Part shown: positions 6,768 to 62,649 of the stretch, one piece after another
Numbering within the stretch: position 1 is the stretch's first letter
How the letters are laid out: every line of letters begins with the position of its first letter
IMG/VR virus record: IMGVR_UViG_3300034157_000066
DNA: 64,000 bases
Reading direction: 5' to 3' (one strand)
Source: a virus
Taxonomy: Duplodnaviria; Heunggongvirae; Uroviricota; Caudoviricetes
The notes under the pieces: generated by a model
Databases searched by the model: none
What the model was told of the DNA's origin: nothing
What the model saw: only the letters and a program-made list of their open reading frames with translations
Made by a program: the position numbers and the translations under genes

Positions 6768-7238
6768 ATGATGAAACGATTTATTTTCTCTAAAATCACA
6801 ATTGTTTTCGTTGTCCACATAATGCTTTTGGTTGGCCTTTACTATGGCACCAAATCAATTGCAATGGTTCATGATCGGGCAGTAGTTCCTGTTTATCTGG
6901 TTGCTGTTAAACCTGATTCTGCAAAAACTTACGATGAAAATGGTTTTTTTATCGGTCAATTTGTTGGTGAATTTGACTATGAAGGTCACCGATTTGAACA
7001 AAATATTTCAATAAGCCAACGATTTGAGTTGATTCAATCGAAAAAGCCTGTTAGACACATGAAACTTCTTTCAGCGGCTGAAATAGGTCTTGATACGCCT
7101 TTCAATGGGCCGGGAACATATCTTTTTTATATACTTTCGATGGCTACATTCTTCTTAATGTTTTTGTTTACTGACCTTCCAAAATTTTACAGGGCTAATC
7201 AAAAAACTGTTTTTGATGAAAATAAAGCTTGCTCGTAA
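6768..7238 (+). CDS. two-TM protein with central soluble domain
   Basis: TM at both ends; topology like 21908 and 59759. Confidence 0.7.
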   Translation: MMKRFIFSKITIVFVVHIMLLVGLYYGTKSIAMVHDRAVVPVYLVAVKPDSAKTYDENGFFIGQFVGEFDYEGHRFEQNISISQRFELIQSKKPVRHMKLLSAAEIGLDTPFNGPGTYLFYILSMATFFLMFLFTDLPKFYRANQKTVFDENKACS

Positions 7239-7302
7239 ATGTGTTTTTTGATATGATAGACACATCAAAACGAGATACCCAATCAAATATCGGAGATACA
7301 CC

Positions 7303-29791: not shown

Positions 29792-29876
29792 GCCCGGTTG
29801 GTGAAATTGGTAGACACGAGGGACTTAAAATCCCTTTCCGTAAGGAGTGCCGGTTCGAGTCCGGCACCGGGCACCA
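29792..29876 (+). tRNA. tRNA-Leu (anticodon TAA)
   Basis: GCCCGGT/ACCGGGC acceptor, TGGTAGA D-loop, AGGGA-CTTAAAA-TCCCT anticodon arm, long variable arm, GTTCGAG T-loop, encoded CCA. Confidence 0.95.
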
Positions 29877-42527: not shown

Positions 42528-42629
42528 TATTAATCATTTTGAACAGAAATCGCAGCCTAGGCTGCTTTTTTGTTTTTTGTAAATGTTTTGACATTAAAAC
42601 TCATTTTTGGTATAATTATTTCATCAAAA

Positions 42630-42651
42630 CGAGATAATATAGGAACTCTCG
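42630..42651 (+). promoter_or_regulatory. leader hairpin CGAGA-N12-TCTCG with SD in loop (also 43084..43105, 45081..45102)
   Basis: three near-identical leaders ending TCTCGACATGGCTAAG. Confidence 0.65.
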
Positions 42652-42977: not shown

Positions 42978-43107
42978 TCAATAAACTCACTTATATAAAG
43001 CCCCGACCTTGGGGCTTTTTGTTGTTTTGTTTATAAAGCCGTTGACTAAAAAACTCATTTTTGATATACTTATCCCATCAAAACGAGACAACATAGGAAA
43101 TCTCGAC

Positions 43108-45017: not shown

Positions 45018-45104
45018 TAAATATCAGGTAGAAAAAACTTGTTTTTGTTTTCTTAACGCGATATAATAGACACATCAAAACGAGACAACACAGGAAATCT
45101 CGAC

Positions 45105-49315: not shown

Positions 49316-49443
49316 ACACCTAAGCACTGTTCAGACCAAGAGCCTCTTCGGAGGCTTTTTCATTTATTTTAAAATAAACCTTGCTCATAAATCTGTTTTT
49401 CATTATAATAACACCATCGAAACGAAATACAGGAAGCGACCCC

Positions 49444-56126: not shown

Positions 56127-56249
56127 CGAATACTCATTAAACAGACCGCCTTCGGGCGGTTTTTTGTTGTTAATATTCTTGTTTTTGTTGCTTGCCATTG
56201 TGGTTTTTGTTATACTTGAACCATCAAAACGACATCAAGGAATTACGTC

Positions 56250-59758: not shown

Positions 59759-60229
59759 ATGCAGTACATCAGAAAGAACCTGCTTTGCATTTTTCTTTTT
59801 TGTGTGGGTGTCGTCATGATTTCGTATGGCGTCAAGCTTTATAACTTTGGTGTTAATTATGAGGAAAAATCAACTCGAAACATCACGCTTGTTGATACCA
59901 GTAGCACTACCTACAAGCAGAAACAAAACACTTTTTACAATACCACTGGTTTCTTTCTCGATGATTTGACTGGCAAACGGTTTCGACTTGCCATTCAAGA
60001 CAAGGTTTATCGTGAATTCGAAGCGGGTGGTAATAAGCCTATCCCTATGCAAAAGGAACTCAGTCAAGAAAACCTTGATAACAATGTTCATGGGGCTATC
60101 TGGAAATTGCTGGGTGTTTTGATGTTTATCGTGGGTAACTTGTTTGTTATTTGGGTATTAGTGAGTAAATTTGTCGAATATAAAGCAAAGTGGCTTCATT
60201 TTGTTAAATTTGGCAAATACCAAGAATAA
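59759..60229 (+). CDS. two-TM protein with central domain
   Basis: TM-soluble-TM. Confidence 0.7.
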   Translation: MQYIRKNLLCIFLFCVGVVMISYGVKLYNFGVNYEEKSTRNITLVDTSSTTYKQKQNTFYNTTGFFLDDLTGKRFRLAIQDKVYREFEAGGNKPIPMQKELSQENLDNNVHGAIWKLLGVLMFIVGNLFVIWVLVSKFVEYKAKWLHFVKFGKYQE

Positions 60230-60268
60230 CCCTTGCAGGTTTATCTGTTTGTTGATAAAATATTGTCT

Positions 60269-60319
60269 TCGAAGCGGCAAAAGGCGAGCATTCAAATAAG
60301 CCTTTCCTTTTGTTTCTGC
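60269..60319 (+). ncRNA. candidate structured 5'-UTR element, copy 1
   Basis: homologous to 61961..62003 with compensatory stem changes. Confidence 0.55.
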
Positions 60320-60340
60320 TCATTACTTGGAAGATAGATT

Positions 60341-61072
60341 ATGAACAATTCCGAAACTCAAGATGAACTTAAAAAAATCCCAAGTTTTGGTCTTGTCGAA
60401 TATTTTTCCAATAATTTCGCTGACTCTTCTTTTGAGTATGGCAGTGATCGATGGGGTATTTGCCGTTATCCATTAGATTCTGCTGGGAAGCGTATTGTTG
60501 AATTGCTTGAATATTGCCCTCATACTTTAGGTTTGAATGGGGGAGCAGCCGATAAATCTGAAACTATTGTGATCTTGACTTCATATAAAGGTGACACTCC
60601 TAATTCGATTTATTTCAAATTCAATCCTGAGATTGTTGATGTTTATTCAAATCATTTCGATGACTTGGATTGTGACAATATTAATGCCTTTGTCAACCGA
60701 CTTATCCAGCATATGGAATTTATTAACAAGGTTAACACTTTTGATAAATTTGAATTATTTAAATGTGCTGACTTCAATGTTTTTTTTAATTTTAAATATG
60801 ATCATACCGTTAATCGTATTTTTCGAGTTGCAAATATCGCCTTTAACCCGATTGCAGGCCATGACAAAAAGGTCGTATGCACCTTCACTAATAATACGTT
60901 AACAACAATGTCCAGCCTGCGAAAAATGGATATGGAATTTTTTAACCGTTACTATAAACACAAAATACAGGAAGCCATTCCTGATCAGAGTTTTGATGAC
61001 CTTCATGCGTTGATTGACATCTCAAATTGGAATGAAAATTTAAAATCGCTTGTAAAGATGGCCTACTATTGA
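60341..61072 (+). CDS. hypothetical protein
   Basis: 243 aa, AT-rich. Confidence 0.75.
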   Translation: MNNSETQDELKKIPSFGLVEYFSNNFADSSFEYGSDRWGICRYPLDSAGKRIVELLEYCPHTLGLNGGAADKSETIVILTSYKGDTPNSIYFKFNPEIVDVYSNHFDDLDCDNINAFVNRLIQHMEFINKVNTFDKFELFKCADFNVFFNFKYDHTVNRIFRVANIAFNPIAGHDKKVVCTFTNNTLTTMSSLRKMDMEFFNRYYKHKIQEAIPDQSFDDLHALIDISNWNENLKSLVKMAYY

Positions 61073-61109
61073 TACAATAAGCTCAACAACAAACACCCGA
61101 GGAAAATAA

Positions 61110-61508
61110 ATGAATCATATTCAAAAATTTAACCGTGCTCTGTTGAAAGCCATTGCTGCCAAAAAAATCGTTGTTGCTGACCGTAACAGTGGTGCTATCC
61201 GTGAAGCTGTCGTCAAGTTCAGCTTTTCCCATGATGGTGTTACCCACTTCTATGCACTGTCGTCTGAGCGGACGGCTCCCGGTCTGGAACTGTTGGGCTA
61301 TGACGCACCGCCTAAGCTCACTCTGTCGGCTTACAATGCGTCCTTCACCAGTGGGGCTAACACTGACTTGCCGGAAGGCGTTGATGTGTCGGCTATCAAA
61401 TACATCGAATCTTACTCTGTTATTTCGGAAGAAGACGCTGCCAAGGCCCGTGAAATCTTGGTAGAAGCGTTTAACCGCTTCAATGTTGAAATGTGCCTTC
61501 CACACTAA
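61110..61508 (+). CDS. hypothetical protein
   Basis: GAGGA SD, terminator. Confidence 0.75.
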   Translation: MNHIQKFNRALLKAIAAKKIVVADRNSGAIREAVVKFSFSHDGVTHFYALSSERTAPGLELLGYDAPPKLTLSAYNASFTSGANTDLPEGVDVSAIKYIESYSVISEEDAAKAREILVEAFNRFNVEMCLPH

Positions 61509-61638
61509 AATATCCACTTTGAACACTGGGGCTTCGGCCCCTTTTTTTGTTTTTAAAATAAATGCTTGATCAAAAAACTCGTTTTTGTTATACTTACCAC
61601 ATCAAACAGATTGTAGTTCTCAAACTTTGAGGTTTATC

Positions 61639-61914
61639 ATGAAAGTTATTATTGCTGGCAATGTGTCTCATGAAATCAAAGTAACTCGAATCAAGCCTAA
61701 GCTGTGGGGTGTTCGTTGCTTTACTAACGGCATACTCAATCAAGAAATCCAAGTTCAATGCAAAGCGGATATCGGGGTTGCAGCGGCTGACATGCTTCGC
61801 TGGGAAGACAAGTGCGGTAATCACTCCGACCAAGCCACCGCCAGCCGTGAGCGTTTTAACAAAGGCCCAAAATGGCGAGCTTACCAACGACCAACTAAAA
61901 AAATCACGGTCTAA
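61639..61914 (+). CDS. hypothetical protein
   Basis: GAGG SD. Confidence 0.7.
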   Translation: MKVIIAGNVSHEIKVTRIKPKLWGVRCFTNGILNQEIQVQCKADIGVAAADMLRWEDKCGNHSDQATASRERFNKGPKWRAYQRPTKKITV

Positions 61915-61960
61915 TTCAAAAAAGCTTGTTTTGGGTTGAGTATTTTAGTATAATGACCCA

Positions 61961-62003
61961 TCGAAGCAGCAAGGGTGAGCATAAGCCTTTCCCTTGCCTC
62001 TGC
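61961..62003 (+). ncRNA. candidate structured 5'-UTR element, copy 2
   Basis: GCAG-CAAGGG..CCCTTG-CCT-CTGC stem just after promoter. Confidence 0.55.
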
Positions 62004-62027
62004 AAACCTCAGCGAATGGAATGACTA

Positions 62028-62576
62028 ATGAATAATCAAAAAAAAGAAACGCCAAGTCAGTTTCGTAAGCGTTTCAAACATTATCAAGGTCACTATGTCC
62101 GCGTTGTGGATATCGATCTTGAACACGTTGAAAAACTCGTCACCAATCATTATGTCGCTTCTGGCATTAGCTGGAATGAGGTTGATATTGCTGTTGATTT
62201 TTTTAATAAACAGCTCAAATCGTTCATTCATAAAAACATGAGTGAAACCAACCATCAGAAAGCGTCTATCAAATCGTTGGATTTTTGGATCTACTACGTT
62301 CCAAACGGCAATGGAAAAGCAGTGGTGACGGTTCAAACTGAAACCATTAAAGATTTCTTGAAACCTGCCTTATATTACGCTGGCATGTCTTACCCTGAAT
62401 ATGGTGATGAGCAAGAAGCTGTCTTGAAACTGGCTACTGATAGCTTTGACCGGAGCTATGCAGACGCCGCTAAGTTCGTTGACGCCGCTCGACTGCATGA
62501 TGAAAACGAAGCCTTGAAACGCCGGGTTGCTTGGCTTGAAAAACAGAACATCGGCATTGATTTTAAAAATATTTGA
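62028..62576 (+). CDS. hypothetical protein
   Basis: 182 aa, C-terminal coiled coil. Confidence 0.75.
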   Translation: MNNQKKETPSQFRKRFKHYQGHYVRVVDIDLEHVEKLVTNHYVASGISWNEVDIAVDFFNKQLKSFIHKNMSETNHQKASIKSLDFWIYYVPNGNGKAVVTVQTETIKDFLKPALYYAGMSYPEYGDEQEAVLKLATDSFDRSYADAAKFVDAARLHDENEALKRRVAWLEKQNIGIDFKNI

Positions 62577-62649
62577 AATAGTGGTTGCCTATAAATCTGT
62601 TTTTTGGTAAAATTATCACATCAAAACAGAAACCCAAAAGGGAAACATC

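Follow-up and report, generated by a model that had tools for sequence, protein, structure and literature searches.

What kind of signal would be kept, almost unchanged, directly behind the promoters of two unrelated genes is the question raised by positions 60269-62003 of the sequence considered here, a window of 64,000 nucleotides (nt; the whole stretch analysed, to which all coordinates refer) from a Caudoviricetes record of IMG/VR. The genes that follow the two copies, here called A and B, share no ancestry that could be detected (BLASTP E 4.9; hhalign probability 0.5%), as a preliminary description had stated, and both strings reported there, at 60269-60319 and 61961-62003, are found exactly and on the plus strand. 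Its proposal of a novel structured cis-acting leader common to both genes is borne out by homologues carrying compensatory changes and by purifying selection. The explanation favoured here, to which about an even chance is given, is that the element would act as a sequence-specifically recognised 5′ operator hairpin coupling the post-transcriptional fate of genes A and B and of one or more further genes.

Two copies of one irregular hairpin

The two copies and their parts are as follows.

60269..60319, plus strand: leader element, copy A (RNAalifold consensus; same fold as the single-sequence minimum free energy (MFE) structure; covariance model (CM) score 84.2 bits)
5′ end of copy A, plus strand: unpaired TCGAA (RNAalifold consensus)
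60274-60277 with 60316-60319, plus strand: helix P0 of copy A, GCGG with CTGC (RNAalifold consensus)
60278-60284 with 60306-60312, plus strand: helix P1 of copy A, CAAAAGG with CCTTTTG (RNAalifold consensus)
60313-60315 and 60285/60305, plus strand: 3-nt bulge and 1x1 internal loop of copy A (RNAalifold consensus)
60286-60289 with 60300 and 60302-60304, plus strand: helix P2 of copy A, GAGC with G and CTT, C 60301 being bulged
60290-60299, plus strand: apical loop of copy A
61961..62003, plus strand: leader element, copy B (RNAalifold, MFE; CM 58.8 bits)
61966-61969 with 62000-62003, plus strand: helix P0 of copy B, GCAG with CTGC
61970-61975 with 61991-61996, plus strand: helix P1 of copy B, CAAGGG with CCCTTG
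61997-61999, plus strand: bulge of copy B
61977-61980 with 61985 and 61987-61989, plus strand: helix P2 of copy B, GAGC with G and CTT
61981-61984, plus strand: apical loop of copy B, shortened to ATAA

RNAalifold renders the element as a single irregular hairpin of 15 pairs and about 45 nt. Its base helix (GCRG:CUGC, 4 bp) is separated by a 3-nt bulge on the 3′ side from the main helix (CAARRGG:CCYYUUG, 7 bp), which is followed by a C/U-U 1x1 internal loop and by an invariant upper helix (GAG:CUU plus C:G, 4 bp) with one bulged pyrimidine, the whole being closed by an apical loop of the form AU-N6-AA. MFE predictions on single sequences return the identical fold, at -11 to -17 kcal/mol and with z-scores of -0.7 and -1.9 relative to shuffles. 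The core shared by both copies (GAGCAT, 0-12 nt, AAGCCTTTCC) is present twice in the window, compared with 0.00 occurrences expected from 100 dinucleotide shuffles, and a covariance model built from the orthologue sequences recovers these two copies only, the next-best match in the 64 kb (15.7 bits) being the antisense of copy B. The 6-nt difference between their apical loops, formerly described as an insertion, is a deletion of N6 private to copy B of the window, these nucleotides being present in all other A and B copies.

Position relative to the promoters

Each copy lies directly behind a promoter.

60233-60238 and 60256-60261, plus strand: promoter of copy A, -35 TTGCAG, 17-nt spacer, -10 TAAAAT (read from the sequence)
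61926-61931 and 61949-61954, plus strand: promoter of copy B, -35 TTGTTT, 17-nt spacer, -10 TATAAT (read from the sequence)

The gap between -10 box and element is 7 nt for copy A and 6 nt for copy B, in line with the placement originally noted, and the predicted starts consequently coincide with the first T of the element or precede it by one base (about 60268 for copy A, and 61960-61961 for copy B). The hairpin itself begins 11-12 nt past the -10 box, 5-6 nt from the predicted transcription start. A consensus promoter scan missed both promoters because their -35 boxes match at only three of six positions. That of copy A carries TG at -15/-14 and belongs to promoter repeat families D2 and D6, while that of copy B belongs to family D20 and is kept in orthologues. 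Throughout the orthologues the hexamers and the distance of 6-7 nt from -10 box to element are maintained, whereas the spacer sequence diverges.

This arrangement is embedded in a window in which small plus-strand genes are densely packed, every one preceded by a host-type promoter of its own and many followed by a terminator; a repeat-family analysis of the window shows such promoter and terminator modules to be abundant across the genome. At least ten window promoters share, besides their -35 and -10 boxes, an early transcribed stretch CATC[A/G]AAAC(GA) located about 6 nt past the -10 box (for example at 7229-7276, 42588-42635, 43042-43089, 45039-45086, 49381-49428, 56188-56235 and 62585-62632), and the first 7 nt of the element, TCGAAGC, are a variant of this start-region consensus (families D2 and D6). 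The extent first attributed to the element has to be narrowed accordingly, its first 7 nt being not specific to it but part of a promoter-proximal consensus that is common in the genome.

Occurrence in related elements

Protein searches returned 19 clusters for A (39-95% identity), all of them metagenomic, and 12 for B (51-92%), and both genes have orthologues in about ten metagenomic lineages. Seventeen loci obtained from protein homologues were compared, together with two that a DNA pattern had located in JGI metagenomes, where at least two contigs proved to have two copies of the hairpin each. Homologues of A and B sit on metagenomic contigs of 0.35, 0.50, 1.28 and 1.86 Mb (L135, 350 kb; L128, 498 kb; L119, ENA k141_1011963, 1.28 Mb; L129, JGI Ga0308158_10000001, 1.86 Mb), and contigs of such length indicate that the family of genetic elements in question is megabase-sized.

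Within a syntenic clade comprising L118, L119-121 with L129, L122, L123, L128, L130, L134 and L135-138, whose A proteins are 46-99% identical to one another, the hairpin stands before A and/or B at every locus, always 6-7 nt past a -10 box; every lineage whose gene A reaches a protein identity of 47% or more to the others carries it. It is absent from a more distant lineage, in which A is 39-49% identical to the window protein and lies in a different neighbourhood, directly behind a terminator, and it is also absent before a B homologue of 51% identity. In that distant lineage (L124-127 and L131) gene A is found beside genes for an NAD-dependent DNA ligase, a Bax1-I protein and a class II tRNA synthetase. 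At L128:8904-9310 gene A has lost approximately its N-terminal half, leaving a C-terminal open reading frame (ORF) of 121 amino acids (aa), with promoter and leader hairpin intact.

Two loci contain a third copy, at L136:10470-10531 and L135:10472-10531, which is cut by the end of the locus after 20-22 nt (CM 27.9 and 24.5 bits, respectively). It lies behind a B-type promoter, 5.5 kb downstream of gene B, with genes for a thymidine kinase and for an 82-aa protein preceding it; the counterpart site in the present genome would fall past the end of the window.

Database searches place the motif outside described families. With Rfam 15, the sole match in the window at gathering level is a tRNA at 29792-29873, and relaxing the threshold to E<=10 over 60200-62100 yields three chance-level matches, none of them on the element. 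Nothing was retrieved from INPHARED by DNA or by proteins A and B, from IMG/VR by the two proteins, or from PLSDB by blastn, and a strict 26-base pattern gave zero occurrences in GTDB genomes and IMG/VR. A scan of IMG/VR with the core pattern returned at least 117 loci, all of which were discarded as matches due to chance, their flanks being unrelated. As a kind, conserved hairpins in the 5′ leaders of phage early genes are familiar. To judge from these searches, the present one is an undescribed RNA motif of that familiar kind, so far confined to one clade of giant metagenomic elements.

Conservation exceeds that of the genes served

Among orthologues of gene A the element shows a mean pairwise identity of 93% (range 86-100), compared with 65% for the promoter (50 nt upstream), 68% for the linker to the ATG, 69% for the coding DNA and 56% for the protein. 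The corresponding values among gene B orthologues are 86% for the element, 70% for the promoter, 66% for the linker, 80% for the coding DNA and 79% for the protein. By these identities, purifying selection on the element is far stronger than on its flanks. In the alignment of 16 distinct sequences 34 of 55 columns are invariant, unpaired positions among them, and the columns that vary outside the covarying pairs fall in the apical loop, the 1x1 loop and the bulged pyrimidine or the 3-nt bulge, with the exception of one G.A mismatch in copy B of L135-138, the apical loop being the only freely variable part. The element is kept far more strictly than the genes behind it, and for this reason a regulator probably docks on it.

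A different origin of such uniformity would be a promoter-leader cassette homogenised by duplication and gene conversion, as a mobile module of the PeSL type, in which the leader would have no role of its own. The truncated third copy behind a B-type promoter before another gene (L135, L136) suggests duplicative spread, as in PeSL, and the A and B copies of L119, which share a GGGG:CCCC stem and differ at three positions, fit conversion; the genome is, moreover, rich in promoter and terminator modules, and shuffling of PeSL is documented in T4-type phages (PMC2839356). Against this, the copies occupy orthologous positions at which the flanks have diverged to 50-69% while these 51 nt remain at 86-100%. 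Conversion tracts matching exactly the hairpin in every lineage are implausible, and the substitutions respect pairing. The cassette is therefore regarded as improbable.

Covariation and the strand on which the fold is made

The consensus structure accommodates 99.6-100% of the alignment cells as paired, and sliding the partner lowers this value to 52-65%. In the main helix, two neighbouring pairs appear in A:U, G:U and G:C versions; the double-sided cells at these two varying pairs number 7-8, a count reached by 0-2 of 500 shuffles. When mapped on protein relatedness, the pairing changes amount to at least 4-5 separate events: the contrast between A-type and B-type stems (AAGG:CCUU vs GGGG:CCCC), the GGGG:CCCC stem of the L119 A copy, the AGGG:CCCU stem of the L130 B copy, a matched loss of one nucleotide in both arms in the B copies of the window and L118, and an uncompensated A-to-G change giving G:U in the sister lineages L122 and L135. 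The stem covariation first noticed between the two window copies is thus real and is reproduced in relatives.

G:U pairs are fixed in 13 of 16 sequences at one position and in all 16 at another. Both these pairs and the intermediates of L122 and L135 would be C.A oppositions on the minus strand or in an antisense RNA, which argues for a fold made by plus-strand RNA. The same observations bear on a DNA-level operator, that is, a repressor or activator bound to the inverted repeat at +6 to +50 of the double-stranded DNA. Inverted repeats downstream of promoters can be operators, and some phage helix-turn-helix (HTH) regulators bind the DNA and RNA versions of one site (PMC13551039). Nevertheless, the G:T positions break the symmetry in most copies, the invariant centre is asymmetric, and the half-sites differ between the copies of one genome; in copy B of the window the 6-nt deletion together with the shortening of the arms by 1+1 nt shifts the arm spacing by 8 bp. 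Copies within a genome preserve pairing despite differences in stem sequence and, for the window B copy, in arm spacing as well; this argues against a dimeric DNA operator, an explanation considered very improbable.

A small ORF on the opposite strand deserves even less credit and is practically negligible. The minus strand does present, in all copies, a purine-rich Shine-Dalgarno (SD)-like stretch, AAGGAAAGG, followed by an ATG that is the reverse complement of CAT in GAGCAT. The peptides, however, would be 9-40 aa long and similar only over their first 7-8 residues, inside the conserved element; the covarying position would be read as F, P or L, the frame is shifted in the B copies of the window and L118, and no minus-strand promoter was seen at the locus.

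An autonomous domain ahead of the ribosome-binding site

Folding of full leaders places the hairpin as an independent 5′ domain in the MFE structure of 11 out of 14, and in ensemble folding SD and AUG are mostly unpaired in most leaders (n=14). The ribosome-binding site is located 9-20 nt beyond the hairpin, and that of gene A is listed here.

60329..60333, plus strand: SD-like GGAAG of gene A, separated from the element by 9 nt and from the ATG by 7 nt

The linker of the B type (window 62004-62030; L118:6114-6140; L119:6411-6442) has a conserved block of its own, CAGCGAATGGA[A/T]TGA, which contains, shortly before the start of gene B, a mini-ORF of two codons (ATG GAA/GAT TGA).

These leaders also allow the possibility of a small riboswitch to be weighed, in which the hairpin, with its invariant internal loop and bulges, would bind a metabolite. 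Its unpaired nucleotides are indeed invariant, and two pairing registers are 100% compatible with the alignment and near-equal in energy in the A copies. The second of these (AAAGGC:GCCUUU) had already been considered in the preliminary description, and its compatibility is confirmed, but it is reached through one-sided wobble changes only; it is near-isoenergetic only in A copies (-11.5 vs -11.1 kcal/mol) and is 5-7 kcal/mol worse in the B copies of the window, L128 and L130 and in the A copy of L119. One-sided changes and such an energy gap in several copies make a conserved two-state switch unlikely. Neither a terminator nor a conserved sequestration of the SD was found in the 14 leaders that could serve as an expression platform, the downstream proteins are unrelated and lack a metabolic signature, and Rfam gives no match. 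Since no conserved terminator, SD-sequestering or stable alternative fold exists, a riboswitch is unlikely, and its probability is put at a very low value, slightly under that of the DNA operator; a minimal ligand-sensing hairpin is likewise the less likely alternative.

Further structural readings were tried and set aside. A bistable switch combining the second register with a GAAGCGG:UUGUUUC helix was rejected on its energies and for want of double-sided changes. Sequestration of the SD by CCUUUCC is not conserved, nor is a loop-SD pairing UUCCAA:UUGGAA, perfect only in L134, and pairing of the loop GAGCA with a downstream UGCUC is found only in some A copies. An upstream ORF starting from AUA/AUU in the loop is incompatible with linker lengths that differ by non-multiples of three. 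The likeness of UUCAAAU to a T-loop fails because no T-stem flanks it and the loop is variable or deleted, a kink-turn because no G.A tandem follows the 3-nt bulge, and an integron attC because core sites are lacking. No U-tract follows the stem, so that the hairpin is not a terminator or attenuator.

Processive antitermination of the nut/put kind, in which the nascent hairpin, alone or with a protein, would let the polymerase pass downstream terminators, would agree with the few copies per genome, each just after a promoter, and with a genome dense in intrinsic terminators, one of which follows the gene A unit (61528-61541). In the lambda nut (boxA/boxB) and HK022 put systems, few copies, placed shortly after early promoters, form structured nascent RNA. 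The aligned leaders, by contrast, contain neither a boxA-like (CGCTCTTA) nor a boxB-like (GAAAA loop) sequence and have no Rfam match, and the apical loop, where N-type proteins bind boxB, is precisely the variable, deletable and dispensable part here. No terminator lies between the element and its gene. This role is judged improbable, marginally more so than the cassette.

The main rival is a passive 5′ stabiliser, in which the hairpin would merely shield the 5′ end from decay by RNase E/RppH, in the manner of ompA and with no specific factor. In its favour, the hairpin of every copy lies within 5-6 nt of the predicted 5′ end, and it is an autonomous 5′ domain; stem-loops at 5′ ends are also a documented protective feature (PMC7509114). 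A stem serving only this purpose should nonetheless drift with compensation, and yet the 34 invariant columns include unpaired bases, bulges and most pairs, an invariance that persists though the protein has diverged to 47-60% identity. The predicted stability is also modest, with the energies and z-scores given above. In addition, the 5-6 unpaired nucleotides at the predicted 5′ end would exceed the optimum for ompA-type protection. A purely passive role is thus thought unlikely, while deserving more weight than any of the other alternatives.

Proposed explanation

Nucleotides that are near-fixed outside the apical loop, among them unpaired ones and even pairs with full freedom to covary, most likely indicate the operator of a trans-acting factor. 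The element would form the 5′-terminal domain of two mRNAs here and of three or more in one relative, folding independently of the ribosome-binding site. A trans-acting factor, probably a protein and encoded either by the giant element or by its host, would recognise the hairpin sequence-specifically and jointly set the stability and/or the translation of the messages that carry it; as a side effect of its position, the hairpin may also shield the 5′ end to some degree from 5′-end-dependent decay. The original idea of a ligand- or protein-binding leader survives in its second half, protein binding being plausible given the invariant unpaired columns, while ligand binding finds no support in view of the missing expression platform. 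The more specific version, namely that the hairpin is the operator of an RNA-binding regulator whose small post-transcriptional regulon would comprise three or more unrelated genes in megabase-sized phage- or plasmid-like elements, is put forward tentatively, as a possibility clearly less probable than the general one.

Several points weigh against the operator explanation. Covariation is thin: two pairs are involved, with about 4-5 independent events, and the 16 sequences are closely related. The remaining pairs do not vary and are, in an alignment of this kind, uninformative on pairing, and copy B of L135-138 has one G.A mismatch in the main helix. The transcription start sites are those predicted from sequence, and no terminator was found between the upstream genes and either promoter, so that some RNAs would carry the hairpin internally. 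The 5-6 unpaired nucleotides at the predicted 5′ end are not ideal for pure end protection. Finally, no candidate binding protein emerged, since neither A and B nor their 132-aa and 91-aa neighbours gave an informative family or fold match.

If the operator of an RNA-binding regulator is what is seen here, it would be one half of an RNA-protein regulatory pair that is new and for which the catalogues contain no relative in sequence. Identity of 86-100% over a 51-nt RNA, beside protein at about 50%, is among the strongest signals of purifying selection in the region, and it comes from giant uncultivated elements (contigs of 0.35-1.86 Mb) that are almost unannotated and whose gene regulation is undescribed. 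The element would mark A, B and the third gene as co-regulated, offering a handle on otherwise featureless ORFs, and is a candidate for a new Rfam family as well as a compact, portable leader with possible use as an expression part.

Downstream genes and neighbours

The genes and the terminator of the two units are listed below.

60341..61072, plus strand: gene A, 243 aa (ORF; metagenomic homologue clusters)
61110..61508, plus strand: 132-aa gene, always following gene A in the same transcription unit (ORF and loci of relatives)
61528..61541, plus strand: intrinsic terminator hairpin with a T-run after it, ending the gene A unit (terminator scan; repeat family D3)
62028..62576, plus strand: gene B, 182 aa (ORF and homologue search)

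Gene A has no match in Pfam, PHROG, NCBIfam or PADLOC. Its AlphaFold2 (AF2) model (predicted local distance difference test (pLDDT) 83, predicted TM-score (pTM) 0.73) has no clear relative in the Protein Data Bank (PDB; Foldseek E >= 0.056, best VIA-align Z 5.6), and the protein may, judging from this model, have an undescribed fold; the motifs CRYPL, DTPxSxYF and D.EFF..YYK are invariant. An Atlas lead (score 0.91, 143-157 shared features) to a Rep_trans/Phage_CRI replication initiator, with the hairpin as nick site, was rejected, as neither Foldseek nor VIA-align gave the pLDDT-83 model a PDB match in its support. A role at the RNA level is also favoured by the constant distance from the -10 box. 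The 132-aa protein has no Atlas match.

The AF2 model of gene B has a mean pLDDT of 63, reaching about 77-87 over residues 10-105, which are followed by a disordered linker and a long C-terminal helix. Residues 22-109 find their best matches in the ParE/RelE superfamily, with six ParE-type chains at Z 5.1-7.0 (best overall Z 7.0, rmsd 2.8 Å over 80 residues) and RelE, YoeB and YafQ at Z 4.0-4.9. As these Z values lie within the noise range, a ParE/RelE fold for the N-terminal domain is a weak, if family-consistent, lead. No HTH or ribbon-helix-helix (RHH) domain was detected in six neighbouring proteins with Pfam, PHROGs, NCBIfam or PADLOC.

Comparison with known systems

PeSL modules, which are likewise composed of a sigma70-type promoter and a stem-loop and stand before small genes in plastic regions, have their stem-loops upstream of or across the promoter, before the start, as sequence-variable G/C-tract hairpins that end upstream transcription (PMC2839356). 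The present hairpin is, on the contrary, downstream of the predicted start, has an A/U-rich stem with no U-run, is invariant in sequence and stays with its gene across lineages. PeSL promoters are strong and sigma70-like, with an upstream region rich in A/T; the two present promoters have good -10 boxes, weak -35 boxes and 17-nt spacers.

Stabilisers of the ompA type are stem-loops at the extreme 5′ end of the mRNA that are portable between genes (Emory et al. 1992, as cited in PMC7509114). Such hairpins have very few unpaired nucleotides ahead of them and lengthen the half-life of the message. The element would resemble them as a 5′-terminal stem-loop independent of the coding sequence, and differs in that there it is structure that acts and not sequence, while here the sequence is near-invariant and a 5′ tail of 5-6 nt is predicted. 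The stem-loop hp2 in the 5′ untranslated region (5′-UTR) of rne is conserved and serves as the sensor of RNase E feedback (Diwa et al. 2000, as cited in PMC7509114; PMC13692253). It offers a precedent for a conserved 5′-UTR stem-loop through which a regulator exerts post-transcriptional control, but concerns a single autoregulated host gene, lies deeper within a long UTR and is unrelated in sequence.

A further comparison is provided by the Aca1/Aca2 motifs in the 5′-UTRs of phage anti-CRISPR operons, which are bound in a sequence- and structure-specific manner by a protein that the element itself encodes; their repetition ahead of adjacent operons places several units under common control, and binding of Aca2 blocks translation (PMC13551039). 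The cognate regulator in such systems is usually a small HTH or RHH protein whose gene lies in the operon or beside it. The sequences are unrelated, and next to the present element neither an HTH/RHH regulator nor a paired promoter inverted repeat was found; its predicted hairpin ends 9-20 nt upstream of the SD and leaves it uncovered. What is common to the Aca motifs and to the leader of genes A and B is a conserved 5′-UTR hairpin repeated before neighbouring units.

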